Below, in pieces: positions 881-18,547 of a stretch of DNA of 64,000 bases (position 1 is its first letter; every line of letters begins with the position of its first letter). The stretch lies in assembly GCF_044324875.1 (NCBI RefSeq), contig NZ_CP172185.1; one strand, written 5' to 3'. Under the pieces are notes generated by a model that worked only from the letters and a program-made list of their open reading frames with translations, was not told the origin of the DNA and did not search any database. This stretch comes from Escherichia coli (GTDB taxonomy: Bacteria > Pseudomonadota > Gammaproteobacteria > Enterobacterales > Enterobacteriaceae). Position numbers and translations under genes: made by a program.

Positions 881-1780
881 TTAACTTCCCACTTTTACCG
901 CTTTACGCCACCGCAAGCCAAATACATTGATATACAGCCCGGTCATAATGAGCACCGCACCGAAAAATTGCAGACCCGTTAAGCGTTCATCCAGCAATAG
1001 TGCCGCACTTGCCAGTCCTACTACGGGCACCAGTAACGATAACGGTGCAACCCGCCAGGTTTCATAGCGTCCCAGTAACGTCCCCCAGATCCCATAACCA
1101 ACAATTGTCGCCACAAACGCCAGATACATCAGAGACAAGATGGTGGTCATATCGATAGTGACCAGACTGTGAATCATGGTTGCGGAACCATCGAGAATCA
1201 GCGAGGCAACAAAGAAGGGAATGATTGGGATTAATGCGCTCCAGATTACCAGCGACATCACCGCCGGACGCGTTGAGTGCGACATGATCTTTTTATTGAA
1301 GATGTTGCCACACGCCCAACTAAATGCTGCCGCCAGGGTCAACATAAAGCCGAGCATCGCCACATGCTGACCGTTCAGACTATCTTCGATTAACACCAGT
1401 ACGCCAAAAATCGCTAAGGCGATCCCCGCCAATTGTTTGCCATGCAGTCGCTCACCGAAAGTAAACGCGCCAAGCACGATAGTAAAAAACGCCTGTGCCT
1501 GTAACACCAACGAAGCCAGACCAGCAGGCATACCGAAGTTAATGGCACAAAAAAGAAAAGCAAACTGCGCAAAACTGATGGTTAATCCATACCCCAGCAG
1601 CAAATTCAGTGGTACTTTCGGTCGTGCGACAAAAAAGATAGCCGGAAAAGCAACCAGCATAAAGCGCAAACCGGCCAGCATCAGCGGTGGCATGTTATGA
1701 AGCCCCACTTTGATGACCACAAAATTTAGCCCCCATACGACCACTACCAGTAGCGCCAACACCCCATCTTTTCGCGACAT
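881..1780 (-). CDS. eamA: EamA (YdeD) cysteine/O-acetylserine exporter, 299 aa
   Basis: Polytopic membrane protein translation starting MSRKDGVLALLVVVVWGLNF; internal start chosen within the longer ORF. Confidence 0.9.
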   Translation of the reverse strand: MSRKDGVLALLVVVVWGLNFVVIKVGLHNMPPLMLAGLRFMLVAFPAIFFVARPKVPLNLLLGYGLTISFAQFAFLFCAINFGMPAGLASLVLQAQAFFTIVLGAFTFGERLHGKQLAGIALAIFGVLVLIEDSLNGQHVAMLGFMLTLAAAFSWACGNIFNKKIMSHSTRPAVMSLVIWSALIPIIPFFVASLILDGSATMIHSLVTIDMTTILSLMYLAFVATIVGYGIWGTLLGRYETWRVAPLSLLVPVVGLASAALLLDERLTGLQFFGAVLIMTGLYINVFGLRWRKAVKVGS

Positions 1781-1974
1781 TCTACCGCCTCTGAATTTCA
1801 TCTTTTGTAAGCAATCAACTTAGCTGAATTTACTTTTCTTTAACAGTTGATTCGTTAGTCACCCTTTACGACGGCATTAATGCGCAAATAAGTCGCTATA
1901 CTTCGGATTTTTGCCATGCTATTTCTTTACATCTCTAAAACAAAACATAACGAAACGCACTGCCGGACAGACAA

Positions 1975-3162
1975 ATGAACTTATCCCTACGACGCTCTAC
2001 CAGCGCCCTTCTTGCCTCGTCGTTGTTATTAACCATCGGACGCGGCGCTACGCTGCCGTTTATGACCATTTACTTGAGTCGCCAGTACAGCCTGAGTGTC
2101 GATCTAATCGGTTATGCGATGACAATTGCGCTCACTATTGGCGTCGTTTTTAGCCTCGGTTTTGGTATCCTGGCGGATAAGTTCGACAAGAAACGCTATA
2201 TGTTACTGGCAATTACCGCCTTCGCCTGCGGTTTTATTGCCATTCCTTTAGTGAATAACGTGACGCTGGTGGTGCTCTTTTTTGCCCTCATTAACTGCGC
2301 CTATTCCGTTTTTGCTACTGTGTTGAAAGCCTGGTTTGCCGACAATCTTTCGTCCACCAGCAAAACGAAAATCTTCTCAATCAACTACACCATGCTCAAC
2401 ATTGGCTGGACCATCGGTCCGCCGCTCGGCACGCTGTTGGTGATGCAGAGCATCAATCTGCCCTTTTGGCTGGCAGCTATCTGTTCCGCGTTTCCCATGC
2501 TTTTCATTCAAATTTGGGTAAAGCGCAGCGAGAAAATCATCGCCACGGAAACAGCCAGTGCCTGGTCGCCGAAAGTTTTATTACAAGATAAAGCACTGTT
2601 GTGGTTTACCTGCTCTGGCTTTCTGGCTTCTTTTGTTAGCGGCGCATTTGCTTCATGCATTTCACAATATGTGATGGTGATTGCTGATGGGGATTTTGCC
2701 GAAAAGGTGGTCGCGGTTGTTCTTCCAGTGAATGCTGCCATGGTAGTTACGTTGCAATATTCCGTGGGCCGGCGACTTAACCCGGCTAACATCCGCACGC
2801 TGATGACAGCAGGCACCCTCTGTTTCGTCATCGGTCTGGTCGGTTTTATTTTTTCCGGCAACAGCCTGCTATTGTGGGGTATGTCAGCTGCGGTATTTAC
2901 TGTCGGTGAAATCATTTATGCGCCGGGCGAGTATATGTTGATTGACCATATTGCGCCGCCAGGAATGAAAGCCAGCTATTTTTCCGCTCAGTCTTTAGGC
3001 TGGCTTGGTGCGGCGATTAACCCATTAGTGAGTGGCATAGTGCTAACCAACCTGCCGCCTTCCTCGCTGTTTATCATCTTAGCGTTGGTGATCATTGCTG
3101 CGTGGGTGCTGATGTTAAAAGGAATTCGTGCAAGACCGTGGGGGCAGCCCGCGCTTTGTTGA
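1975..3162 (+). CDS. ydeE: YdeE MFS transporter, 395 aa
   Basis: 395-aa multi-TM ORF recognised as YdeE. Confidence 0.9.
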   Translation: MNLSLRRSTSALLASSLLLTIGRGATLPFMTIYLSRQYSLSVDLIGYAMTIALTIGVVFSLGFGILADKFDKKRYMLLAITAFACGFIAIPLVNNVTLVVLFFALINCAYSVFATVLKAWFADNLSSTSKTKIFSINYTMLNIGWTIGPPLGTLLVMQSINLPFWLAAICSAFPMLFIQIWVKRSEKIIATETASAWSPKVLLQDKALLWFTCSGFLASFVSGAFASCISQYVMVIADGDFAEKVVAVVLPVNAAMVVTLQYSVGRRLNPANIRTLMTAGTLCFVIGLVGFIFSGNSLLLWGMSAAVFTVGEIIYAPGEYMLIDHIAPPGMKASYFSAQSLGWLGAAINPLVSGIVLTNLPPSSLFIILALVIIAAWVLMLKGIRARPWGQPALC

Positions 3163-3288
3163 TTTAAGTCGAACACAATAAAAATTTAATTCAGCCTTCG
3201 TTTAGGTTACCTCTGCTAATATCTTTCTCATTGAGATGAAAATTAAGGTAAGCGAGGAAACACACCACACCATAAACGGAGGCAAATA

Positions 3289-3384
3289 ATGCTGGGTAAT
3301 ATGAATGTTTTTATGGCCGTACTGGGAATAATTTTATTTTCTGGTTTTCTGGCCGCGTATTTCAGCCACAAATGGGATGACTAA
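3289..3384 (+). CDS. mgtS: MgtS (YneM) 31-aa small membrane protein
   Basis: ATG at 3289 encodes MLGNMNVFMAVLGIILFSGFLAAYFSHKWDD with stop at 3382-3384; not in the ORF track because it is under 60 aa. Confidence 0.85.
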   Translation: MLGNMNVFMAVLGIILFSGFLAAYFSHKWDD

Positions 3385-3411
3385 TGAACGGAGATAATCC
3401 CTCACCTAACC

Positions 3412-3450
3412 GGCCCCTTGTTACAGTTGTGTACAAGGGGCCTGATTTTT
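3412..3450 (+). terminator. Rho-independent terminator of mgtS
   Basis: Stem ggccccttgt...acaaggggcc followed by tgattttt. Confidence 0.6.
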
Positions 3451-3459
3451 ATGACGGCA

Positions 3460-3560
3460 AAAAAAAACCGCCAGTAAACCGGCGGTGAATGCTTGCATGG
3501 ATAGATTTGTGTTTTGCTTTTACGCTAACAGGCATTTTCCTGCACTGATAACGGATCGTT
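3460..3560 (-). ncRNA. mgrR: MgrR small RNA (PhoP-activated), about 95-100 nt
   Basis: Minus-strand unit ending in terminator accgcc-N8-ggcggt plus T9 (3460-3488), preceded by a PhoP-box-like direct repeat at 3590-3610; lies between mgtS and dgcZ as in K-12; ends approximate. Confidence 0.6.
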
Positions 3561-3589
3561 GACACAGTAGCATCAGTTTTCTCAATGAA

Positions 3590-3610
3590 TGTTAAACGGA
3601 GCTTAAACTC
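3590..3610 (-). promoter_or_regulatory. PhoP-box-like direct repeat (GTTTAA-N5-GTTTAA) upstream of mgrR
   Basis: Minus-strand reads gaGTTTAAgctccGTTTAAcat, two hexamers with 11-bp periodicity; overlaps the dgcZ stop. Confidence 0.5.
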
Positions 3611-4493
3611 GGTTAATCACATTTTGTTCGTCAATAAACATACAGCGATTTCTTCCGGTTTGCTTACCCTCATACATTGCCCGGTCCGCTCTTCCAATGA
3701 CCACATCCAGAGGTTCTTCAGGAAATGCGCGACTCACACCTGCAGTCACGGTAATGTTGATATGCCCTTCAGAATGTGTGATGGCATGGTTATCGACTAA
3801 CTGGCAAATTCTGATACCTGCACGACATGCTTCTTCATCATTAGCCGCTTTGACAATAATGATAAATTCTTCGCCACCGTAGCGATAAACCGTTTCGTAA
3901 TCGCGCGTCCAACTGGCTAAGTAAGTTGCCAGGGTGCGTAATACTACATCGCCGATTAAATGCCCGTAGGTATCATTAACCAATTTAAATCGGTCAATAT
4001 CCAACAACATTAAATAAAGATTCAGAGGCTCAGCGTTGCGTAACTGATGATCAAAGGATTCATCAAGAACCCGACGACCCGGCAATCCCGTCAAAACATC
4101 CATATTGCTACGGATCGTCAGCAAATAAATTTTGTAATCGGTTAATGCCGCAGTAAAAGAAAGCAACCCTTCCTGAAAGGCGTCGAAATGCGCGTCCTGC
4201 CAGTGATTTTCAACAATAGCCAACATTAATTCCCGACCACAGTTATGCATATGTTGATGGGCAGAATCCATTAGCCGAACGTAAGGTAATTCATCGTTAT
4301 CGAGTGGTCCCAGATGATCAATCCACCGACCAAACTGGCACAGTCCATAAGAATGGTTATCCGTTATTTCTGGCTTACTGGCATCTCTCGCGACCACGCT
4401 GTGAAACATACTCACCAGCCACTGGTAGTGGGCATCGATAGCCTTATTGAGATTTAACAAGATGGCATCAATTTCCGTTGTCTTCTTGATCAT
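3603..4493 (-). CDS. dgcZ: DgcZ (YdeH) zinc-regulated diguanylate cyclase, 296 aa
   Basis: Translation MIKKTTEIDAILLNLNKAIDAHYQWL... with GGEEF motif (RYGGEEFIII). Confidence 0.92.
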   Translation of the reverse strand: MIKKTTEIDAILLNLNKAIDAHYQWLVSMFHSVVARDASKPEITDNHSYGLCQFGRWIDHLGPLDNDELPYVRLMDSAHQHMHNCGRELMLAIVENHWQDAHFDAFQEGLLSFTAALTDYKIYLLTIRSNMDVLTGLPGRRVLDESFDHQLRNAEPLNLYLMLLDIDRFKLVNDTYGHLIGDVVLRTLATYLASWTRDYETVYRYGGEEFIIIVKAANDEEACRAGIRICQLVDNHAITHSEGHINITVTAGVSRAFPEEPLDVVIGRADRAMYEGKQTGRNRCMFIDEQNVINRV

Positions 4494-4747
4494 TGCCACT
4501 CCTTTTTCACAGTTCCTTGTGCGCGCTATTCTAACGAGAGAAAAGCAAAATTACGTCAATATTTTCATAGAAATCCGAAGTTATGAGTCATCTCTGAGAT
4601 AACATTGTGATTTGAAACAAAATCAGCAGATAAAAAAGTGTTTAATTCTGTAAATTAAGCCTGCATTATCGCAATTAAAAGGATGACAAATAGCATAAAC
4701 CAATACCCTAATGGCCCAGTAGTTCAGGCCATCAGGCTCATTTATTT

Positions 4748-5140
4748 TTATTTCTGCAAATGAGTGACCCGAACGACGGCCGGCGCGCTTTTCTTATCCA
4801 GACTGCCGCTAATGTTGATCATCTGGTCCGGCTGAACTTCTCGTCCATCAAAGACTGCCGCAGGAATAACAACATTAATTTCACCGCTCTTATCGCGAAA
4901 AACGTAACGGTTCTCTCCTTTGTGAGAAATCAAATTACCGCGTAGTGAAACCGAAGCGCCATCATGCATGGTTTTTGCGAAATCTACGGTCATTTTTTTT
5001 GCATCATCGGTTCCGCGATAGCCATCTTCTATTGCATGAGGCGGCGGTGGCGCTGCATCCTGTTTTAAACCGCCCTGGTCATCTGCCAACGCATAAGGCA
5101 TGACAAGAAAACTTGCTAATACAATGGCCTGAAATTTCAT
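4748..5140 (-). CDS. ydeI: YdeI periplasmic OB-fold (YgiW/BOF family) stress protein, 130 aa
   Basis: 130-aa secreted protein with signal peptide. Confidence 0.85.
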
Positions 5141-5461
5141 ACTGACTCCTTAATTGCGTTTGGTTTGACTTATTAAGTCTGGTTGCTATTTTTATAATTG
5201 ACAAATAAGAATACTGCCAATTGTTATAAGGCATTTAAAATCAGGCAACTAGCTGTCAAATATTAAGAGAATTTAACTCACTAAAGTAAGAAGAAGATTA
5301 AAGAGTCTTAAACATATTTCAGAACAATCAGATTTATAAATTTGAAAATTATTATAACGGAAGGGTATACAAAAAAAGTAATTTTGCTGGCGACTGCGAA
5401 ACGGCATTCGCATTAGCGGTGAAGTTTGCCCCCACCCAGCTGCTGCAATTACTGCTCTAAC

Positions 5462-5500
5462 CAGGCTGGCCTGGCGATATCTCCAGGCCAGCCATTGGTG
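5462..5500. terminator. Hairpin just downstream of dcp
   Basis: Inverted repeat ggctggcctgg / ccaggccagcc directly after the dcp stop. Confidence 0.45.
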
Positions 5501-5504
5501 GTGT

Positions 5505-7550
5505 TTATATGTTCAAGCCACGATGTTGCAGCATCGGCATAATCTGAGGTGCCTTACCGCGCCATTGTCGATACAGGCGTTCCAGATCTTCGCTGTTACC
5601 TCTGGAAAGAATCGCCTCGCGAAAACGCCGCCCATTTTCACGCGTTAATCCGCCCTGCTCAACAAACCACTGGTAACCATCATCGGCCAACATTTGCGTC
5701 CACAGATAAGCGTAATAACCTGCGGCATATCCGCCACCAAAAATATGGGCGAAATAACTGCTGCGATAGCGTGGCGGTATAGCGGGAAGATCCATATTTT
5801 CTGCCACCAGCGCCCGCAATTCGAAATCATCGACATCCTGCATTGCTTCGTTTTCTTCCAGGCAATGCCAGCGCATATCGAGAAGTGCGGCGCTAAGCAG
5901 TTCGCTCATCTCATACCCTTTATTGAACAGGCTGGCATTACGCATTTTCTGTTGCAGTTCGTCAGGCATTGCTGCCCCGCTCTGATAATGCCGGGCGTAG
6001 CGAGCGAATACCTGCGGATGCGTTGCCCAGTGTTCGTTGATTTGCGACGGAAATTCGACAAAATCACGCGGCGTGTTGGTGCCGGAAAGTGTGGCATAAC
6101 GCTGGCGGGCAAAGAGGCCGTGCAACGTATGACCAAATTCATGGAATAAGGTTATGACATCATCCCAGAGTAACAACGCAGGCTCACCGGCAGCGGGTTT
6201 CTGATAATTGCAGACGTTATAAATTACCGGATGCGTTTCATTAAGCGTTGATTGCTCAACAAAATTGCCCATCCATGCACCGCCGCTTTTTGAATCACGG
6301 GCGAAGAAATCACCGTAAAATAACGCCAGCCCCACGCCATTATGATCAAAAATTTCCCATACACGAACGTCAGGATGGTAGACAGGAATATCAAAACGTT
6401 CGACAAACTTAATACCGAAGAGCTGATTCGCGGTCCAGAATACACCTTCATTCAACACCGTGTTTAATTCAAAATATGGCTTGAGCTGCGATTCATCGAG
6501 ATCGAATTTCTCACGTCTTACCTGCTCGGCATAAAATGCCCAGTCCCACGGCTGCGCGCTAAACCCGCCCTGCTGCTTATCGATAACCGCCTGTATGGAG
6601 GCTAATTCATCGCTCGCACGTTGACGCGCCGCTGGAACAATTTCCCGCATAAAGTTGAGTGCTGCTTCTGGCGTTTTTGCCATCTGATCGGCGATTTTCC
6701 ATGCGGCATAATGAGGGAAACCAAGCAGTTTCGCCTGCTGCGCGCGGATCTCCACCAGACGTTGAATGATAGCGCGGGTATCATTGGCATCATTTTTTTC
6801 CGCTCGCGTCCAGCCCGCAGTGAACAGTTTTTCACGCGTCGCGCGATCGCGCAGTTCAGCAAGCGCTGGTTGCTGGGTGGTATTCAGCAACGGAATCAGC
6901 CATTTGTTATCCAGACCTTTCTCGCGAGCCGCCTCTGCCGCCAGCGCAATCTCTTGCTCACTCATTCCTGCCAGCTGCGCGAAATCGTTCACAACCAGAC
7001 CGCCGGATTTATTTGCTGCCAGTAACCGCTGGTTAAACTGGCTGGTCAGGGTCGCAGCTTCTGTATTCAGGACTTTTAATTTTGCTTTATCAGCTTGTGC
7101 AAGTTTGGCTCCGGCAAGGACAAAACGTTGATGAATGACCTCCACCAGGCGGATGGATTCACTATCAAGTCCCAGGGATTCACGGCGTTGCCAGACAGCA
7201 TCTACCCGCGCGAATAATTCACCGTTCAGATAGATATCATTAGCCAGTTCCGCCAGTTCAGCGGAAAACTGTTCATCAAGACGCTGTAATTCATCATTAG
7301 TATGCGCCGCAGTCATCGCAAAAAAGACGCTGGTAACGCGGGTAAGTAATTCTCCGCTTTGTTCCAGTGCCAGAATAGTATTGTTGAAATCAGGTGTTTG
7401 CGGGTTAAGCGCGATGGCAGCAATTTCTGCCCGCTTTTGCTGCATTCCCTCATCGAATGCCGGGCGATAGTGATGATTGGCAATTTGATCAAAATGGGGA
7501 GCCAGATACGGCAGTGTGCTTTGCACAAGGAAAGGATTCATTGTTGTCAT
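5505..7550 (-). CDS. dcp: Dcp dipeptidyl carboxypeptidase II (M3 family), 681 aa
   Basis: Translation from MTTMNPFLVQSTLPYL...; HEFGH zinc motif present (LFHEFGHTLH). Confidence 0.93.
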   Translation of the reverse strand: MTTMNPFLVQSTLPYLAPHFDQIANHHYRPAFDEGMQQKRAEIAAIALNPQTPDFNNTILALEQSGELLTRVTSVFFAMTAAHTNDELQRLDEQFSAELAELANDIYLNGELFARVDAVWQRRESLGLDSESIRLVEVIHQRFVLAGAKLAQADKAKLKVLNTEAATLTSQFNQRLLAANKSGGLVVNDFAQLAGMSEQEIALAAEAAREKGLDNKWLIPLLNTTQQPALAELRDRATREKLFTAGWTRAEKNDANDTRAIIQRLVEIRAQQAKLLGFPHYAAWKIADQMAKTPEAALNFMREIVPAARQRASDELASIQAVIDKQQGGFSAQPWDWAFYAEQVRREKFDLDESQLKPYFELNTVLNEGVFWTANQLFGIKFVERFDIPVYHPDVRVWEIFDHNGVGLALFYGDFFARDSKSGGAWMGNFVEQSTLNETHPVIYNVCNYQKPAAGEPALLLWDDVITLFHEFGHTLHGLFARQRYATLSGTNTPRDFVEFPSQINEHWATHPQVFARYARHYQSGAAMPDELQQKMRNASLFNKGYEMSELLSAALLDMRWHCLEENEAMQDVDDFELRALVAENMDLPAIPPRYRSSYFAHIFGGGYAAGYYAYLWTQMLADDGYQWFVEQGGLTRENGRRFREAILSRGNSEDLERLYRQWRGKAPQIMPMLQHRGLNI

Positions 7551-7686
7551 TTTCTTCTCCTGAACGCGAGGTGTTCCATAGCGTAGGCTTACTGATAACG
7601 GAGTGCAATCTTGCAAACCAGTATTACCCGCTCTTAAGCATCACGTGCTATGTTATTGACACACAAAAGCGTTGAGGAACAGTGAG

Positions 7687-8433
7687 ATGATCGTTTTAGT
7701 AACTGGAGCAACGGCAGGTTTTGGTGAATGCATTACTCGTCGTTTTATTCAACAAGGGCATAAAGTTATCGCCACTGGCCGTCGCCAGGAGCGGTTGCAG
7801 GAGTTAAAAGACGAACTGGGAGATAATCTTTATATCGCCCAACTGGACGTTCGCAACCGCGCCGCTATTGAAGAGATGCTGGCATCGCTTCCTGCCGAGT
7901 GGAGCAATATTGATATCCTGGTAAATAATGCCGGCCTGGCGTTGGGCATGGAGCCTGCGCATAAAGCCAGCGTTGAAGACTGGGAAACGATGATTGATAC
8001 CAACAATAAAGGCCTGGTATATATGACGCGCGCCGTCTTACCGGGTATGGTTGAACGTAATCATGGTCATATTATTAACATTGGCTCAACGGCAGGTAGC
8101 TGGCCGTATGCCGGTGGTAACGTTTACGGTGCGACGAAAGCGTTTGTTCGTCAGTTTAGCCTGAATCTGCGTACGGACCTGCATGGTACGGCGGTGCGCG
8201 TCACCGACATCGAACCGGGTCTGGTGGGTGGCACCGAGTTTTCCAATGTCCGCTTTAAAGGCGATGACGGTAAAGCGGAAAAAACCTATCAAAATACCGT
8301 TGCATTGACGCCAGAAGATGTCAGCGAAGCCGTCTGGTGGGTATCAACGCTGCCTGCTCACGTTAATATCAATACCCTGGAAATGATGCCGGTTACCCAA
8401 AGCTATGCCGGACTGAATGTCCACCGTCAGTAA
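7687..8433 (+). CDS. ydfG: YdfG NADP-dependent short-chain dehydrogenase, 248 aa
   Basis: SDR Rossmann motif TGATAGFG near N-terminus; start MIVLVTG. Confidence 0.9.
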   Translation: MIVLVTGATAGFGECITRRFIQQGHKVIATGRRQERLQELKDELGDNLYIAQLDVRNRAAIEEMLASLPAEWSNIDILVNNAGLALGMEPAHKASVEDWETMIDTNNKGLVYMTRAVLPGMVERNHGHIINIGSTAGSWPYAGGNVYGATKAFVRQFSLNLRTDLHGTAVRVTDIEPGLVGGTEFSNVRFKGDDGKAEKTYQNTVALTPEDVSEAVWWVSTLPAHVNINTLEMMPVTQSYAGLNVHRQ

Positions 8434-8521
8434 TTTTTATACCCGGCGTAACTGCCGGGTTATTGCTTGTCACAAAAAAGTGGTAGACTCATGCAGTTAA
8501 CTCACTCACAAGCAAGAACGA

Positions 8522-9208
8522 ATGACCGTCGAAACGCAACTTAATCCCACACAGCCTGTCAATCAGCAGATTTATCGTATTCTTCGTCGCGACATTGTCC
8601 ATTGCCTGATTGCACCAGGCACACCGTTGTCGGAAAAAGAAGTTTCTGTTCGTTTCAATGTGTCACGCCAGCCGGTTCGTGAAGCCTTTATTAAACTGGC
8701 GGAAAACGGCCTGATTCAAATTCGTCCGCAGCGTGGCAGCTACGTCAACAAAATTTCCATGGCCCAGGTGCGCAACGGCAGTTTTATCCGTCAGGCCATT
8801 GAGTGCGCGGTGGCGCGTCGGGCGGCGAGCATGATTACCGAAAGCCAGTGCTACCAACTGGAACAAAATCTTCACCAGCAACGCATTGCCATTGAGCGCA
8901 AGCAACTGGATGATTTTTTTGAACTTGATGACAACTTCCATCAACTCCTGACGCAGATTGCCGACTGTCAACTGGCGTGGGATACCATTGAGAACCTGAA
9001 AGCGACCGTTGATCGCGTGCGCTATATGAGTTTCGACCACGTTTCTCCACCAGAAATGCTGTTACGCCAGCATCTTGAGATTTTCTCTGCCCTGCAAAAA
9101 CGTGATGGCGATGCGGTAGAACGTGCAATGACGCAACATTTGCAGGAAATCAGCGAATCCGTGCGCCAGATCCGCCAGGAAAACAGCGACTGGTTTAGCG
9201 AAGAGTAA
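8522..9208 (+). CDS. ydfH: YdfH (RspR) GntR-family transcriptional regulator, 228 aa
   Basis: N-terminal GntR-type HTH with FadR-like C-terminal domain. Confidence 0.85.
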
Positions 9209-9281
9209 TTCATTTCCTCTCATCCCATTCGGGGTGAGAGTCTCTCCCCCCGCCTTATGGCTCATGCATGCATCAAAAAAG

Positions 9282-9296
9282 ATGTGAGCTTGATCA
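9282..9296 (+). promoter_or_regulatory. Possible FNR half-site pair (TTGATcaaaAACAA) upstream of ydfZ
   Basis: Near-match to TTGAT-N4-ATCAA about 90 bp upstream of the ydfZ start. Confidence 0.3.
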
Positions 9297-9384
9297 AAAA
9301 CAAAAAATATTTCACTCGACAGGAGTATTTATATTGCGCCCGTTACGTGGGCTTCGACTGTAAATCAGAAAGGAGAAAACACCT

Positions 9385-9588
9385 ATGACGACCTACGATC
9401 GTAACCGTAACGCAATCACCACTGGCAGCCGTGTTATGGTTAGCGGCACCGGTCACACTGGCAAGATCCTGTCGATTGATACTGAAGGTCTGACCGCTGA
9501 GCAAATCCGCCGCGGAAAAACCGTAGTTGTTGAAGGTTGTGAAGAGAAACTGGCACCTCTGGACCTGATTCGTCTCGGCATGAACTAA
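9385..9588 (+). CDS. ydfZ: YdfZ small protein, 67 aa
   Basis: 67-aa ORF with strong SD (aggagaaaacacctATG). Confidence 0.85.
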
Positions 9589-9623
9589 GCGTGTGAATGC
9601 CGCCGATGGCGGCATTGCTTTTT

Positions 9624-11084
9624 TTACTTCACGGAATATTTCGCAACGGTCGCTTTCGCACCATGCGCTAATAAAGACAAGTACGCTTCCGTCACTTTTG
9701 CAGTAAACAAGCTATTGTCTGGCAAATCATCACCAAAGATCGCCTTAATCGCCAGCAATGACTGGACGCGCGCTTTCCCTTCGGCACTACTTTGTACAGC
9801 CTTCTGAATAACAGGTAACAGTGGGTCACTGCTTTCTATCGGATTTCCCTGTTCATCAACACCACCGACATAACGCATCCAACCTGCGACGCCCAGCGCC
9901 AGCAGATCGAACTTGCTGTCATGCGCCAGATGCCAGCGAACAGAATCCAACATCCGCTGTGGCAATTTCTGGCTGCCATCCATCGCAATCTGCCAGGTTC
10001 GATGACGTAGCGCCGGGTTGCTATAGCGTTCAATTAATCGGTTAGCGTAATCTTGCAAATCAACGCCCTGCACTTTCAACGTCGGCGCTTGTTCCTGCAA
10101 CATCAAGGCATACGCTGCATGACGATAATGTTCATCTTCCATGCAGTCATTAATGTGCTGATATCCGGCAAGATACCCCAGATACGCCAGGAATGAATGA
10201 CTGCCGTTGAGCATGCGCAACTTCATCTCTTCATAAGGCAGCACATCACTAACCAGTTCGGCTCCCGCTTTTTCCCATTCCGGACGTCCGGCAACAAAGT
10301 TATCTTCTATTACCCACTGGCGGAAAGGTTCACAGGCAACGCCAGCAGGATCGCGCACACCGGTAAGTTGTTCGATTTTCGCCAGCGTATCCTCTGTCAC
10401 TGCGGGCACAATACGGTCCACCATTGTTGATGGGAAAGTCACGTTTACTTCGATCCATTGTGCCAGTTTTACATCAACAGCTTGCGCGTAGGAAGTGACA
10501 ACGTCACGCATAACATGACCGTTTTCTGGCATGTTGTCACATGACATGACGGTAAATGCGGGAAGTCCTGCCGCTTTACGGCGAGCCAGCGCCTCAACAA
10601 TCACCCCTGTTGCAGTTTTCGGCTGGTGGGGATTTTGCACGTCGGCAGCGACCATCGGGTGATCGAGCATTAACTGTCCGGTCGCCGGAGAGTGGAAATA
10701 CCCTTTTTCGGTGATTGTCAGAGAGACAATCGCGATTTGCGGTTCACACATCGCAGCCAACACGGTTTCTAAGCCATCTATCTGTACGTGCAAGGCTTTT
10801 TTAACGACGCCAACGACGCGAGCCGTCCACGCATCGGCCGACATTTCCGCAACGGTATAAAGATTATCTTGCTGTTGTAAATCGGCAATTTGCTGTTCGC
10901 CGCCGATTAAATTGACCTCATAATATCCCCAATCACTGAAATGTTTTGTAGCAAGAATATCGGCATACACGCCCTGATGCGCACGGTGAAATGCGCCAAA
11001 GCCTAAATGAACAATTCTTGGGGCCAAGTTATTACGATCATAAACAGGGAGCGTCGCTTTTGCTGATAACAAATTATTTCCCAT
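9624..11084 (-). CDS. ydfI: YdfI mannitol/mannonate dehydrogenase-family oxidoreductase, 486 aa
   Basis: N-terminal NAD-binding motif [10 protein letters not shown]. Confidence 0.9.
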
Positions 11085-11173
11085 AACAATTCCTTAAATT
11101 TAAATATGGCAAGCTGCATGTTTTGTTATATGAATAAAAAATCCCCTCTCCGGTAAGAGAAGGGATGGAGGAT

Positions 11174-12541
11174 TTACAGACTTCTTGAAGGTTGCGCAGC
11201 TGTTACAACACGCGGTTGATCTTCCGCGGCATCTTCCAGTGCACTTAAATCACGGTCTCTCACTTCTGGCATTTTCAGCGCAGAGATTAAACCAATCACT
11301 GAATATGCCATGATCATAATGGCGATCGGATACCAGGATTCCGTCATGGTGCAGAAAATACCCGCCAGGATAGGACCAAAACCGGAAGCGATAAGACCAC
11401 CAATTTCTTTAGAAATCGCCATCCGGGTAAAGCGGTTTTTACAGCCGAACATTTCTGCCATGGTAATGTTTTCCAGAGCAAATAATCCCAGCACCGCACA
11501 GTTATGAATCACAATCAGTGCAACCATAATGGTGCTCGGGGCATAGCTTTTATCTACGATGATAGAAAGCATTGGCCACGCCAGCACAATCGCAGAGGTA
11601 TTCATAATAATATACGGGATCCGGCGACCTATTTTATCGGATAACCAACCAAGGAACGGAATGGTCATAAAGCCGAGAATCGAACTGATCATCAATGCAT
11701 CTGTTGGAATTGCTTTGTTAAACAATAACGTCTGCACTAAATAGCCTGCAAGGAAAGTCTGAATTAAACCGGAGTTACCAGCCTGACCAAAACGCAGCCC
11801 TGTTGCCAGCCAGAAGGATTTGCTCTGGAACATGCTACCAGCAGGTGCAGGTTTTGCTGTCGGTTGGTTGCTGTCGTTAACCTTCTCAAAGACCGGGCTT
11901 TCTTTCAGATTCATACGCAACCAGATAGCAAAGACCATCACGACAACGCTCGCCAGGAACGGTATACGCCATCCCCACGCAAGCAGTTCCTCTTTACTGA
12001 GAATGAAGAACATAAAGGCCCAGATTGCCGTTGCGCTCAAGGTTCCGCAGTTAGTCCCCATAGCAACAAATGAGGAGATAATTCCGCGCTTACCTTTTGG
12101 TGCATATTCCGCCAGCATCGTGCCGGCACCGGAAATTTCCGCGCCTGCCCCCAGCCCCTGAATAATACGCAGCGTCACCAGCAAAATTGGCGCAAACACA
12201 CCAATTTGTGCATAGGTCGGCAGCACACCAATTAAGGTAGTACAGATCCCCATCATAGTGATGGTAATAAAGAGCACTTTTTTACGCCCGATTCTGTCGC
12301 CCATTTTGCCGAAAATAAATGCTCCGACAATACGCGCCACATAACCTGCACCGTAGGTTCCCATTGCCAGAATTAACGCCATTGCCGTTGATGATTCAGG
12401 AAAAAATATTTCATGAAACACTAACGCTGCGCCGAGCGAATATAACTGGAAATCCATAAATTCAAGCGCAGTGCCCAGCCATCCCGATACTGCTGCTTTC
12501 ACCAAATCCTTAGTGCTTCTTTCGTGTTTTTCTATTGTCAT
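11174..12541 (-). CDS. ydfJ: YdfJ MFS transporter, full-length 455 aa
   Basis: Multi-TM MFS translation, uninterrupted. Confidence 0.85.
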   Translation of the reverse strand: MTIEKHERSTKDLVKAAVSGWLGTALEFMDFQLYSLGAALVFHEIFFPESSTAMALILAMGTYGAGYVARIVGAFIFGKMGDRIGRKKVLFITITMMGICTTLIGVLPTYAQIGVFAPILLVTLRIIQGLGAGAEISGAGTMLAEYAPKGKRGIISSFVAMGTNCGTLSATAIWAFMFFILSKEELLAWGWRIPFLASVVVMVFAIWLRMNLKESPVFEKVNDSNQPTAKPAPAGSMFQSKSFWLATGLRFGQAGNSGLIQTFLAGYLVQTLLFNKAIPTDALMISSILGFMTIPFLGWLSDKIGRRIPYIIMNTSAIVLAWPMLSIIVDKSYAPSTIMVALIVIHNCAVLGLFALENITMAEMFGCKNRFTRMAISKEIGGLIASGFGPILAGIFCTMTESWYPIAIMIMAYSVIGLISALKMPEVRDRDLSALEDAAEDQPRVVTAAQPSRSL

Positions 12542-12598
12542 AATGGTTATCTCTAAAAAAGAGGTAAGATGCGTACTACTTACTCGCCGTTATTGGTA

Positions 12599-13618
12599 TT
12601 ATTCAGAAAAAGTGAGTAAGACTTTGCAGCAATGCTTTTGATCCTGTTCAAATAAACTAATGGCATCAGCAACATGCTGGAAATCAAACGTATGGGTAAT
12701 TAGTTTTTCTGGTTTAATTAACCCTTTACTTAACCAGTCGATAACGACCGGGAATTTATTTGCATTTAAGCGTGAAGAGAAAATAGAGAGTTCTTTTCCG
12801 GTAATTCCTTGCTGAATCACTTCAGACGGTTCACTGGAGAAGCCCATCAATACAATACGTGCCGCTGGAGAAGCCAGCGTTACGGCTTCTTTCAGGATTG
12901 AAGGATGACAAGCCGCATCGATAATTAATGTCGGCTTTATGCCTTTTTCAGCGAAAATCTCGCCAAGCGGTGTCTGGCTGTTATTAATCGCCCAGTCTGC
13001 CCCGCTCTCTTTCGCTTTTTCCAGTCGTTCATCAATGCGATCGGCAACAATCACATTCTTAACGTTATAGACGCCTTTTAATACCTGAACGATCGTCAGG
13101 CCGATTGGACCGGCACCGTAAACCAGAACGGTATCATTTTCAGTCGGTTGACCATGACCGGTAACGTTAGCCGCAATGGTAAAAGGTTCGATCATCACCG
13201 CATATTGATCGGCCACTGCTTCAGGAATTTTCCACGCATTTTTTGCCGGCACCACGGCATATTCACTGAAACCACCGTCAGCGTGCACACCTAATACAGC
13301 CAGTGTCGTACAAACGTTCGGCTTACCTATAGAGCACGGATAGCAATGCCCACAGCTGACCACCGGATCGACAGCAACGCGTTCACCGACTCTGGCGCTT
13401 TCCACGCCTTCACCCACTGCATCAATGACGCCAAAGAATTCATGACCAATGACGCGCGGATATTTCGCAAAAGGATTATGCCCACGATAAATATGGCTAT
13501 CTGAACCACAAATTCCGGCAAGTTTCACTTTTACTCGTACTTCACCCGCTGACGGGGTGGGTATTTCGCGTTCGATAATTGCCAGTTGATTCGGTTTTTC
13601 AATTAAAATGCTTTTCAT
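12599..13618 (-). CDS. rspB: RspB zinc-type alcohol dehydrogenase-like starvation-sensing protein, 339 aa
   Basis: MDR signatures GHEFFG and GAGPIG; start MKSILIEK. Confidence 0.9.
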   Translation of the reverse strand: MKSILIEKPNQLAIIEREIPTPSAGEVRVKVKLAGICGSDSHIYRGHNPFAKYPRVIGHEFFGVIDAVGEGVESARVGERVAVDPVVSCGHCYPCSIGKPNVCTTLAVLGVHADGGFSEYAVVPAKNAWKIPEAVADQYAVMIEPFTIAANVTGHGQPTENDTVLVYGAGPIGLTIVQVLKGVYNVKNVIVADRIDERLEKAKESGADWAINNSQTPLGEIFAEKGIKPTLIIDAACHPSILKEAVTLASPAARIVLMGFSSEPSEVIQQGITGKELSIFSSRLNANKFPVVIDWLSKGLIKPEKLITHTFDFQHVADAISLFEQDQKHCCKVLLTFSE

Positions 13619-13629
13619 TATCTTACTCC

Positions 13630-14844
13630 TTACCAGTTCCACAGCGTGCCATCTTCCAGACGTGCGACTGGCAGATAAGCAGGTTCATAGGGATATTTCG
13701 CCGCCAGCTTTTCATCGAATTCGATGCCAAGACCCGGTTTGTCTCCCGGATGCATATAGCCGTTATCGAAAGTCCAGTTGTGCGGGAAGACTTCAAGCAT
13801 TTGTTCGGAATAACCCATGTATTCCTGGACACCGAAATTGGGGACCCACAGATCAAAGTGCAGCGCCGCAGCCATGCAGACTGGTGACAAATCGGAAGGA
13901 CCGTGTGAGCCAGTACGTACCTGATACAACGAAGCAAAATCGGCAATCCGGCGCATACCGGTAATTCCGCCTGCATGGGTCAGCGTGGTGCGGATATAAT
14001 CGATAAGTTGCTCTTCAATCAGTTGATTGCAGTCCCAGATGCTGTTGAAGACTTCACCCACCGCGATGGGTGTGACGGTATGTTGGCGAATGAGACGGAA
14101 GCATTCCTGGTTTTCCGCAGGCGTCGGGTCTTCCATCCAGAACATGCGATAATCTTCAATGCTTTTACCAAAGCGCGCCGCTTCAATAGGCGTTAAGCGA
14201 TGGTGCATGTCATGCAGCAAATGTTCATTAAAACCAAACTTGTTACGTACCGCGTCAAACAATTTCGGCATGAAATCGAGGTATTTCTCCGTCGACCACA
14301 ACTGCTCTTCCGGCCACTGTCCTTTGGTTGCGGGTTCATAAGCCAGACCTTTGCCTTTCGACATGCCGTAGGTGGTTTTCATACCAGGGATTCCGCACTG
14401 CACGCGGATGGCTTTGAATCCCAGCTCCTGATGACGGGCATAATCATCCAGAGCTTCATCAATACTGTGACCGGTGGTATGGCAATAAACCATCACCCCT
14501 TCACGAGACGCGCCGCCGAGTAACTGGTAAAGCGGCATGTTGGCAGCTTTGGCTTTAATATCCCACAGCGCCATATCAACCGCTGAAATGGCCGACATCG
14601 TCACCGGACCGCGACGCCAGTAAGCACCTTTATAGAAAAACTGCCAGATATCTTCGATACGGTGTGCATCGCGACCAATAAGCTGCGGACAAAGGTGATC
14701 CTGCAAATAAGAGGCCACGGAAAGCTCACGTCCATTGAGGGTGGCATCCCCAAGGCCCGTAATACCGTCCTCAGTGGTGATTTTTAATGTGACGAAATTA
14801 CGCCCCGGACAGGTAACAAAAACTTCAGCCTTTACGATCTTCAT
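13630..14844 (-). CDS. rspA: RspA enolase-superfamily mannonate dehydratase-like protein, 404 aa
   Basis: Translation [27 protein letters not shown]...; 11 bp upstream of rspB. Confidence 0.9.
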
Positions 14845-15049
14845 GTTCGATTCCTTGCATCGCTTGTCGTGATGCATGAAACCTACGCAACTGAGCTACT
14901 ACCATACAAGTATGAAGATCGAAAAAAGCCGGAGTGATCACAAAAAAAGGCGTATATTTGCGCCGGGAATGGTTGACAAAAGATGAAATAGAATACCTTT
15001 TGTCAGCTGACACTTCCTTGTATCTTATTGATAAAATGGATTTATGTCC

Positions 15050-15376
15050 TTACGCGCGCCCCCAGCCCGCAACAATGATCAACATGCCGCAAAGCGCAAT
15101 CAACGCCCCCGTCCAGTCATAAAGACTCAGTTTCACGCCATCCACAACGCGCAGCCACATCAACGCCGTGCAGACATAAACGCCACCATAAGCCGCGTAA
15201 ACACGCCCACTCGCCGCAGGATGCAACGTTAACAACCAGACAAACAGTGCCAGAGAAATCCCCGCCGGAAGCAACAGCCAGATACTGGCGTTTCGTTTTA
15301 ACCACAACCAGGGCAGAAAGCATCCAATAATTTCACACAGCGCAGTAGCAAAAAATAGTAACGTTGTTTTAATCAT
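15050..15376 (-). CDS. ynfA: YnfA UPF0060 inner-membrane protein, 108 aa
   Basis: Small 4-TM protein. Confidence 0.85.
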
Positions 15377-15510
15377 CTTTGTCACTTATTGACATCATGT
15401 ATAGTTATAGGACGACATAATATCATCAATATAAACATCCTCCTGGTACGTTTTGCGTTCGCAGTGGATGGTGTAGAATCACCTTTAATCATTCATACAG
15501 GGAATGAATT

Positions 15511-15852
15511 ATGAAAATTACTCTCAGCAAACGAATTGGCCTGCTCGCTTTTCTGCTGCCTTGCGCACTGGCATTGAGCACAACTGTTCATGCCGAAAAT
15601 AACAAACTGGTGATTGAGTCTGGCGACAGTGCGCAAAGCCGCCAGCACGCCGCTATGGAAAAAGAGCAATGGAATGACACGCGCAATCTGCGCCAGAAAG
15701 TGAATAAACGCACTGAAAAAGAGTGGGATAAAGCCGACGCCGCTTTTGATAACCGCGATAAATGTGAGCAAAGCGCCAACATCAATGCCTACTGGGAGCC
15801 AAATACTTTGCGCTGCCTGGACCGTCGAACTGGCCGCGTTATTACCCCCTAA
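15511..15852 (+). CDS. ynfB: YnfB secreted protein, 113 aa
   Basis: Signal peptide plus charged mature region. Confidence 0.85.
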
Positions 15853-15886
15853 CCTGTTATTGATTTAAGGAATGTAAGGACACGTT

Positions 15887-16447
15887 ATGCCAAGCGCCCA
15901 CAGTGTTAAGCTACGCCCGCTGGAGCGTGAAGATTTACGCTATGTACATCAACTCGACAATAACGCCAGTGTGATGCGTTACTGGTTTGAGGAACCCTAC
16001 GAAGCCTTTGTTGAACTCTCTGATCTGTACGATAAGCATATTCACGATCAGAGCGAACGGCGCTTTGTGGTGGAATGTGACGGCGAAAAAGCCGGTCTGG
16101 TGGAGCTGGTGGAAATTAACCATGTTCATCGCCGCGCAGAATTTCAGATAATTATCTCCCCGGAATATCAGGGGAAAGGTCTGGCAACGCGTGCCGCAAA
16201 ATTAGCAATGGACTATGGCTTCACCGTTCTCAATCTCTATAAGCTGTATCTGATCGTCGATAAAGAGAATGAAAAAGCGATACACATTTACCGCAAGCTT
16301 GGCTTTACGGTTGAAGGTGAATTGATACATGAGTTCTTTATTAATGGTCAATATCGGAATGCCATTCGCATGTGCATATTCCAGCATCAGTATCTGGCAG
16401 AGCACAAAACACCGGGTCAGACTCTCCTGAAGCCGACCGCACAATAG
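15887..16447 (+). CDS. speG: SpeG spermidine N-acetyltransferase, 186 aa
   Basis: GNAT-fold translation; stop TAG at 16445-16447 abuts the IS1 end. Confidence 0.93.
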
Positions 16448-16462
16448 GGTAATGACTCCAAC

Positions 16463-16966
16463 TTATTGATAGTGTTTTATGTTCAGATAATGCCCGATGA
16501 CTTTGTCATGCAGCTCCACCGATTTTGAGAACGACAGCGACTTCCGTCCCAGCCGTGCCAGGTGCTGCCTCAGATTCAGGTTATGCCGCTCAATTCGCTG
16601 CGTATATCGCTTGCTGATTACGTGCAGCTTTCCCTTCAGGCGGGATTCATACAGTGGCCAGCCATCCGTCATCCATATCACCACGTCAAAGGGTGACAGC
16701 AGGCTCATAAGACGCCCCAGCGTCGCCATAGTGCGTTCACCGAATACGTGCGCAACAACCGTCTTCCGGAGCCTGTCATACGCGTAAAACAGCCAGCGCT
16801 GGCGCGATTTAGCCCCGACATAGCCCCACTGTTCGTCCATTTCCGCGCAGACGATGACGTCACTGCCCGGCTGTATGCGCGAGGTTACCGACTGCGGCCT
16901 GAGTTTTTTAAGTGACGTAAAATCGTGTTGAGGCCAACGCCCATAATGCGGGCAGTTGCCCGGCAT
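16463..16966 (-). CDS. insB: IS1 InsB transposase component, 167 aa
   Basis: Translation [26 protein letters not shown]... recognised as IS1 InsB. Confidence 0.93.
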
Positions 16967-17160
16967 CCAACGCCATTCATGGCCATATCAATGATTTTCT
17001 GGTGCGTACCGGGTTGAGAAGCGGTGTAAGTGAACTGCAGTTGCCATGTTTTACGGCAGTGAGAGCAGAGATAGCGCTGATGTCCGGCGGTGCTTTTGCC
17101 GTTACGCACCACCCCGTCAGTAGCTGAACAGGAGGGACAGCTGATAGAAACAGAAGCCAC
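16885..17160 (-). CDS. insA: IS1 InsA, 91 aa
   Basis: Translation [30 protein letters not shown]...; overlaps insB in the -1 frame. Confidence 0.93.
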
Positions 17161-17225
17161 TGGAGCACCTCAAAAACACCATCATACACTAAATCAGTAA
17201 GTTGGCAGCATCACCCACAATAGCA

Positions 17226-17936
17226 TTAATAATAATCGATAGTATTTTTGATGGTGTAAACCCGTTCGATGGCGGGTTTTACTCCTTCATCAACAATGAT
17301 TAGCTGACAGTCCACCGGATTGGCGTGACTGTCATATTCACAGCTCTGTTTTACATTACCAACTCTTTGATTATTCAGTAAAGTAACCGCTGTGTAATCT
17401 AATTTTTTGATCGGGTCCGTTGATGGCGTGGCGCTAACAGATAATGTTTTGTCGTGACTTTTCGTGGTTTTACCCAGCGGATACCCCTGATCATCATAGC
17501 GATATTCCATCTGCATCTGTTTGCTGCTGGCTTTAATCACAAAGCCATTATCATCGGTTTCCCAACTCACCCCGGCAGAAGGTAATTCTGCTAGCTGGCA
17601 TTTTCCCTGCAAACGAACTCTTTTCTCCAGTGTCTGGGCATCACGGTAATAATTGGCGTCCAGTACCAGGGCAACCACGGTATTATTTTCCAGATCCAGT
17701 AATTCGAGTGAATCAAAACAGCCTTCTTCCGACAAAGTCCCCGAAACACGTTTCGTCACTTCACCTTGCTCATCCATTAATGTCTGAGTGAAATCTTTTA
17801 CCGGACCACGCAGCGGATCAAAATCGAATTCATTAGAGAAACTGGCCATCTCAGGGGTAAATGAAAGTGTTACCTCTGTTCGGTCACATCCTGTGAGGAA
17901 TATCGCGAGTAAGCATGGCAGTAATTTGTATTTCAC
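17226..17936 (-). CDS. ynfC: YnfC lipoprotein (UPF0257), 236 aa, probable GTG start
   Basis: Lipobox LTGC after signal peptide; start taken as the GTG encoding VKYKLLPC; stop TAA at 17226-17228 lies 3 bp beyond the IS1 target duplication. Confidence 0.85.
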   Translation of the reverse strand: MKYKLLPCLLAIFLTGCDRTEVTLSFTPEMASFSNEFDFDPLRGPVKDFTQTLMDEQGEVTKRVSGTLSEEGCFDSLELLDLENNTVVALVLDANYYRDAQTLEKRVRLQGKCQLAELPSAGVSWETDDNGFVIKASSKQMQMEYRYDDQGYPLGKTTKSHDKTLSVSATPSTDPIKKLDYTAVTLLNNQRVGNVKQSCEYDSHANPVDCQLIIVDEGVKPAIERVYTIKNTIDYY

Positions 17937-18043
17937 AACAGTCACCAGAGAGTAGAGATGATTCTCAATCATAGTAGCAAATACAGTACTTTACACGTTA
18001 AATGCTATGCTTAAAGAAGTTATCTTCGCGTAAGGAGCTTATG

Positions 18044-18349
18044 ATGAAACTCTCAACCTGCTGTGCCGCGCTTCTGCTCGCCCTCGCCTCACCCGCGGTA
18101 CTCGCCGCGCCGGGATCCTGTGAGCGCATACAGAGCGATATATCACAGCGCATTATCAATAATGGCGTACCCGAAAGCAGCTTCACGTTAAGTATTGTAC
18201 CCAATGACCAGGTTGATCAGCCTGATTCCCAGGTCGTCGGGCATTGCGCTAATGATACGCATAAAATTCTCTACACCCGCACCACCAGCGGTAACGTCTC
18301 TGCTCCCGCGCAGTCTACCCAGGATGGCGCGCCTGCCGAACCGCAGTAA
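18044..18349 (+). CDS. ynfD: YnfD secreted protein, 101 aa
   Basis: Signal peptide MKLSTCCAALLLALASPAVLA; SD aaggag upstream. Confidence 0.8.
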   Translation: MKLSTCCAALLLALASPAVLAAPGSCERIQSDISQRIINNGVPESSFTLSIVPNDQVDQPDSQVVGHCANDTHKILYTRTTSGNVSAPAQSTQDGAPAEPQ

Positions 18350-18547
18350 CACATTATCGACTGAACGCCGGATACGACACATCCGGCGATTTGAACATAC
18401 AACATAATCCCACCTTATTACTCATACCCTTCTATTGATATGGATTAATAATTCTTAACCCAAAATGGGTAGACTCCCTCTATTGTTAGCGCGCTAAATA
18501 TTCAATATATAAACTTTTATATAACGATAAAGATCAGGGAGTGAGTT

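Follow-up and report, generated by a model that had tools for sequence, protein, structure and literature searches.

A remnant of ydeJ between ydeI and dcp of Escherichia coli and the 475-bp deletion that very probably produced it

In the analyzed window (the whole 64-kb stretch of Escherichia coli DNA), ydeI and dcp, both encoded on the minus strand, are separated by 364 bp (5141–5504), measured from the ydeI start codon to the dcp stop codon (5505). The features of this locus are collected in Table 1. The product of ydeI reached 256 bits on NF007471 (cut-off 179) and also matched the Pfam family BOF (PF04076), while the gene name was taken from the RefSeq annotation of genomes that are 100% identical at the locus. 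The open reading frame (ORF) that contains dcp was listed as 5505–7616 with an upstream TTG start, and the start given in the table is that of the RefSeq equivalent.

Table 1. Features of the ydeI–dcp locus, with positions counted from the first base of the window
Feature	Position	Strand	Remarks
ydeI	4748-5140	-	intact, 130 aa; YdeI family stress-tolerance OB-fold / BOF periplasmic protein
retained ydeI-ydeJ divergent intergenic region	5141-5380	.	240 of ~275 bp; 27% GC
deletion junction ..ACAAAAAAAGTA / ATTTTGCTGG..	5380/5381	.	alignment, blastn, breakpoint scan; 1 nt (A) microhomology
ydeJ 3' remnant (pseudogene), last 26 codons and stop, NFAGDCETAFALAVKFAPTQLLQLLL	5381-5460	+	in-frame translation; without start codon or RBS
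hairpin, 11-bp G+C-rich stem, 8-nt loop	5464-5493	.	folding; conserved in K-12
dcp (peptidyl-dipeptidase Dcp)	5505-7550	-	intact; RefSeq equivalent in genomes identical at locus

The first-pass annotation had described the interval as only a spacer, very AT-rich, free of ORFs of 60 aa or more and ending in a hairpin beside the dcp stop codon. The longest ORFs overlapping 5141–5504 have 51, 46, and 38 aa and none reaches 60 aa, in agreement with that description. The base composition agreed with it in part: GC content was 0.285–0.30 across 5100–5400 (200-bp windows) and the left 240 bp are AT-rich (27% GC in 5141–5380, compared to 37% in the whole 364 bp and 49.7% in the entire window), but the right 124 bp have a GC content of ~56%. 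In the same way, the length of 364 bp and the AT-rich left part are those of a spacer, while 5381–5460 is the 3' end of ydeJ. The hairpin was confirmed, with a stem formed by GGCTGGCCTGG (5464–5474) paired with CCAGGCCAGCC (5483–5493) that ends 11 nt from the dcp stop codon, minimum free energies of -30.5 (+) and -28.8 (-) kcal/mol, z-scores of -4.8 and -4.5, and 0 of 200 shuffled sequences folding as well. Its stems are kept in the alignment of the window with K-12. It lies between the convergent 3' ends of ydeJ and dcp and, although a G+C-rich stem-loop is present, it was not scored as a Rho-independent terminator because the T-tract is missing (tails ATTGGTGG on the + strand and TGGTTAGA on the - strand). 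Accordingly, the terminator scan returned no terminator-like site in 5050–5560.

The AT-rich part (5141–5380) is collinear with positions 1942–2180 of the locus in a K-12 MG1655 derivative (L001; 91.6% identity). It should still carry the ydeI promoter and probably retains the ydeJ promoter too. Sigma-70-like matches on the + strand were found at 5165–5192 and 5214–5241, both weak and in a number no higher than in shuffled sequences, so that they place neither the ydeI nor the ydeJ promoter. In K-12, RcdA was reported to bind the ydeI–ydeJ spacer and to affect ydeI expression (PMC3535384). No exact copy of the published RcdA box (TTGTnnACA; PMC3535384) occurs in the spacer of either the window or K-12, and each of them has one site with 1 mismatch.

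No Rfam 15 family matched within 5141–5504 (cmscan of 3000–6000, E ≤ 1). The sole match in 3000–6000 was a full-length one to the Hfq-binding sRNA STnc560 at 3378–3591 on the minus strand (281 bits, E 1.4e-65), opposite the ORFs 3289–3384 and 3384–3488 (+), i.e., RefSeq mgtS and mgtT; the sRNA spans the whole of mgtT, and its 3' end reaches over the final 7 nt of mgtS. Farther along, the region 9624–14877 (-) encodes a ydfI-like protein of 486 aa and a ydfJ-like MFS transporter of full length (455 aa), directly followed by rspB-like and rspA-like genes. The Qin prophage presumably interrupts ydfJ in K-12 at the position that matches this region, and the strain appears to be without Qin at its ydfJ-like gene. 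For the segment 1–20000 the best genome matched at 98.7% in at least 3 pieces, there were ~14,900 plasmid matches, and the content was variable beyond 9.5 kb, so that 1–2000 or 9500–20000 may contain an element that is mobile or repeated, or else a mosaic junction.

The first-pass annotation had placed a CinA/PncC-like gene, ydeJ, between ydeI and dcp of K-12, had proposed that it is absent or deleted here, and would have been wrong if K-12 also had a spacer of ~360 bp. Both the position and the family assignment were correct: the K-12 locus is composed of ydeI (-), ydeJ (+, 519 bp, 172 codons), and dcp (-), the protein matches PF02464 and TIGR00199, and the distance from ydeI to dcp is 837 bp in the K-12 MG1655 derivative vs. 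364 bp in the window. When the segment 4700–5600 was searched by megablast against 5,426 complete E. coli genomes, many of them matched as two pieces over ~1,375 bp, with 'ydeJ' annotated in between. The MAFFT alignment of the window with the K-12 ydeI–ydeJ–dcp region contained a single clean gap of 475 bp (alignment columns 283–757) with collinear flanks, and blastn placed K-12 1–681 on window 4700–5381 and K-12 1156–1400 on window 5381–5626. An explicit breakpoint scan gave the missing K-12 segment as L001 2181–2655 or 2182–2656, always 475 bp. As the GTG start codon of K-12 ydeJ is at L001 2217, the loss comprises 35–36 bp upstream of the gene, including the ribosome-binding region, and the first 439–440 of its 519 nt, i.e., 85% of the coding sequence plus the start. 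The proposal of an absent or deleted gene was thus borne out as a deletion, but the gene is truncated rather than cleanly absent, its 3' end being retained.

This retained end was examined as a candidate gene and as a pseudogene. Read in frame, window 5381–5460 gives (N)FAGDCETAFALAVKFAPTQLLQLLL followed by a stop codon, and the K-12 counterpart (H)FAGDCETVLALAVRFALAQLLQLLL followed by a stop codon (K-12 YdeJ C-terminus for comparison: HFAGDCETVLALAVRFALAQLLQLLL, then stop). Five of the 26 residues are changed besides the junction codon, and most changes in the stub are non-synonymous. With tblastn, K-12 YdeJ had a sole match in the 64-kb window, the 3' remnant (aa 147–163, E = 2.5e-4). Neither a CinA/PncC profile match at E ≤ 0.1 nor any Pfam match was found in the remnant, while K-12 YdeJ reached 162 bits with PF02464 and 329 bits with NF002972 and also matched TIGR00199. 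The position is that of ydeJ, on the + strand between the minus-strand genes ydeI and dcp and with a homologous 3' end, and the window shares this slot, the last 26 codons in frame, and the downstream hairpin with K-12 ydeJ (b1537; P31131) and Salmonella RdsA. Unlike K-12 ydeJ, it has no RBS, no start codon, no codons 1–146, and no detectable CinA domain, so that it does not amount to a complete ORF (~172 codons) that has a start and an RBS of its own. What is present is part of a gene that relatives have intact, bounded by a clean gap and under relaxed constraint, as expected of a pseudogene formed by deletion. Identity to K-12 was lower in the remnant (91.25% at nucleotide level) and in the intergenic region (91.6%) than in dgcZ (99.0%), ydeI (98.5%), and dcp (97.1%), and this low identity relative to the flanking genes fits drift after an old inactivation. 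Since the remnant was both retained and drifted, it shows a derived deletion and not an ancestral absence.

The frequency of this arrangement was surveyed in the same set of 5,426 complete genomes. The full K-12 ydeJ coding sequence was covered by ≥ 80% in 3,607 of them (intact length), and 461 bp internal to the deletion were found in 3,618 and absent from 1,808 at megablast sensitivity. A 60-mer centred on the junction, designed so that separate half-matches are impossible, detected the exact junction of the window in 1,630/5,426 genomes (~30%; E ≤ 1e-8). An assembly or sequencing artefact has practically no probability at all, given that the identical junction occurs in these 1,630 independently assembled complete genomes and that at least 40 genomes bearing it match the 7.5-kb locus without a single difference.

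Relocation of ydeJ, with a functional copy elsewhere in the genome, is extremely unlikely. The inspected part of this genome is 64 kb and a few genomes do match ydeJ at 2 places, both of which would leave room for a relocated or diverged copy in this strain, against which the argument is made at the level of the population, but tblastn found no second copy within the 64-kb window, and the deleted 461-bp segment could not be detected anywhere in 1,808 of the 5,426 genomes, so that it was not simply moved. This number is compatible with all 1,630 junction genomes together with other deletions. Moreover, among the matches listed, the genomes with only the remnant have it at a single place, and pncC/ygaD and yfaY are paralogues, distinct from ydeJ.

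The allele has already been annotated in public genomes. Over all 7,501 bases of 2000–9500, at least 40 genomes are identical to the window; one of them is strain 118UI, listed under ST69 and phylogroup D (PMC8900328). At the locus of the 100% identical genomes, positions 3381–3461 (window 5380–5460) carry the same 81 bp as a RefSeq/PGAP pseudogene, described as 'incomplete; partial in the middle of a contig; missing N-terminus'. Examples are Eco118UI_RS27140 (118UI) and IMQ31_RS23675 (O169:H41), and RM14516 has this annotation too. The pseudogenes of 118UI and O169:H41 and the window have identical sequence and coordinates, without any difference, and represent the same allele. This pseudogene call in identical genomes means that the allele is already part of the public annotation.

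To the reverse scenario, in which ydeJ was never in the lineage and K-12-like strains gained it by insertion between ydeI and dcp, we attribute an exceedingly remote chance. It could draw on the frequency of the short arrangement, with its junction in 1,630 genomes, and on a cryptic Escherichia species that is likewise without ydeJ. An insertion in K-12 would leave no part of the gene at the 'empty' site, and the 80 nt kept in the window, which are homologous to the ydeJ 3' end and in its reading frame, therefore count as the product of a deletion. A scan of public genome contigs with a 23-mer from the remnant gave 0 matches, and a codon-degenerate pattern from the dcp 3' end retrieved one genome, Escherichia sp. 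MOD1-EC7003 (L007 9337–10807, NZ_PTRE01000081.1), in which eamA is followed by dcp 440 bp on. In this locus the equivalents of window 903–1908, 3434–3659, and 5417–5719 are joined directly, with deletions of ~1909–3433 (ydeE, mgtS) and ~3660–5416 (dgcZ, ydeI, ydeJ), leaving a 226-bp piece that matches the MgrR/STnc560 region and ~44 nt of the ydeJ 3' end. The cryptic Escherichia locus thus has another breakpoint and a piece of ydeJ, which makes it another deletion instead of an empty site. Judged by their breakpoints, the deletions of MOD1-EC7003 are independent and do not reveal the ancestral state, and they show that this neighbourhood erodes repeatedly. The gene is present in Salmonella and Shigella as well, namely in Salmonella 14028s (STM14_1830; PMC7387798) and in S. 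flexneri 301 (PMC4782007). We consider ydeJ to be ancestral because of the remnant and because of its reported presence in Salmonella and S. flexneri.

All these observations are best explained by a ydeJ deletion allele, which we regard as very probably the correct reading: a single loss of 475 bp that left a 3' stub, with ydeI and dcp intact. One deletion of this size would have removed the RBS, the start codon, and most of ydeJ, and would have left behind the AT-rich divergent promoter region, an untranslatable stub of 80 nt, and the hairpin shared with the convergent dcp. The cell would therewith make no YdeJ, and ydeI, its upstream region, and dcp would be untouched, as far as can be deduced from the sequence.

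Neither an IS end, nor a target duplication, nor foreign DNA was found at the junction, where both flanks align base for base to K-12. A 3-bp GCA microhomology, proposed from the gap placement by MAFFT, was rejected, as the breakpoint scan left only 1 nt in register. A break that relied on almost no homology (1 nt) and shows neither a repeat nor an IS scar would point to illegitimate recombination of the end-joining or slippage type, and from the junction we infer that the mechanism of the deletion was probably homology-independent. An adjacent deletion mediated by an IS element that has since been lost is very unlikely. The spacer is indeed an IS target, as AF206 (99.9% identical) has an IS1 between ydeI and the remnant, but the junction of the window bears none of the traces named above, and the IS1 of AF206 is located upstream of a junction that had already formed, making it a later, secondary event. 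This IS1 occupies L004 2172–2869 (NZ_OZ547571.1), inside the equivalent of ~5141–5380.

The deletion was followed by a second one in other strains. In a further class of genomes the matches extended over only 45% of the 4700–5600 query, and this was traced to a double-deletion allele. In FDAARGOS_1255 (L003, NZ_CP069447.1, 1549–1757) the annotation shows ydeI as well as ydeJ as a fragment that lacks its N-terminus, and the locus has the same ydeJ junction plus a second deletion, with the junction GGCTGAA / TTTGAAAAT. The nested deletion is equivalent to window 4837–5340 (504 bp, 2-nt overlap) and removes the 5' 304 nt of ydeI (the N-terminal 101 codons) together with 200 bp of the intergenic region. 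A 60-mer across this second junction was found in 1,039/5,426 genomes, with UPEC 536, IHE3034, an O6:K2:H1 strain, an APEC O1:K1:H7 strain, and Nissle derivatives among the carriers. By subtraction, roughly 590 genomes are in the state of the window, with ydeJ deleted and ydeI intact. We take the strains with the nested junction (536, IHE3034, Nissle, etc.) to be members of phylogroup B2. This B2-type allele (536, IHE3034, Nissle 1917, FDAARGOS_1255) has the same 475-bp junction and the same remnant as the window, but lost the 5' part of ydeI, which the window keeps intact. The nesting of the two junctions implies the order of events, from the intact locus to ydeJ deleted and then to ydeI and ydeJ deleted, and the ydeJ-deletion allele served as the substrate for the later 504-bp deletion that destroyed ydeI in B2-type strains.

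By its distribution among the sequenced genomes, the deletion is evidently old and widespread and not private to one strain. Strains of different phylogroups (D-type ST69 and B2) probably have the junction in common, which could result from one ancient event spread by recombination or from an old polymorphism that was retained. The deletion also appears to have reached fixation in large lineages of extraintestinal pathogens (B2 strains and, as represented by this locus, ST69-like phylogroup D). Overall, the ydeJ deletion is a real and already annotated lineage polymorphism, and there is nothing mechanistically new in it.

With regard to the function of the lost protein, YdeJ is a single-domain CinA/PncC protein (PF02464, TIGR00199) and was described as a non-functional paralogue of NMN deamidase, in which the YxNxxK block and phosphate-binding blocks carry substitutions (PMC3855486). 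In Salmonella, the ydeJ promoter is sensitive to supercoiling, the gene was renamed rdsA, and the DNA of a ydeJ deletion mutant is more negatively supercoiled; RdsA, a supercoiling modulator, was reported to lower negative supercoiling (PMC7387798). In the RefSeq/NCBIfam annotation the product of YdeJ is named '2-oxo-tetronate isomerase' (equivalog NF002972, 329 bits; L001 2217–2735). The E. coli 2-oxo-tetronate isomerase is b2739 (UniProt EC 5.3.1.35; DeepEC prediction hydroxypyruvate isomerase; PMC12506659), and we found no paper supporting this activity for YdeJ, for which the name looks doubtful.

As a third of E. coli have naturally lost the gene, YdeJ appears to be dispensable, and the same would hold in nature for the stress protein YdeI of B2 strains. 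It is unlikely, though conceivable, that the loss of YdeJ/RdsA is not neutral and has shifted the supercoiling set-point or the stress responses in extraintestinal-pathogenic lineages, or that the retained ydeJ promoter drives a short orphan transcript across the 80-nt stub to the hairpin. The locus offers a presence/absence marker with three ordered states that track major E. coli lineages, and the dispensability of YdeJ would be relevant to those who use the ydeJ promoter or RdsA as a reporter or regulator of supercoiling.
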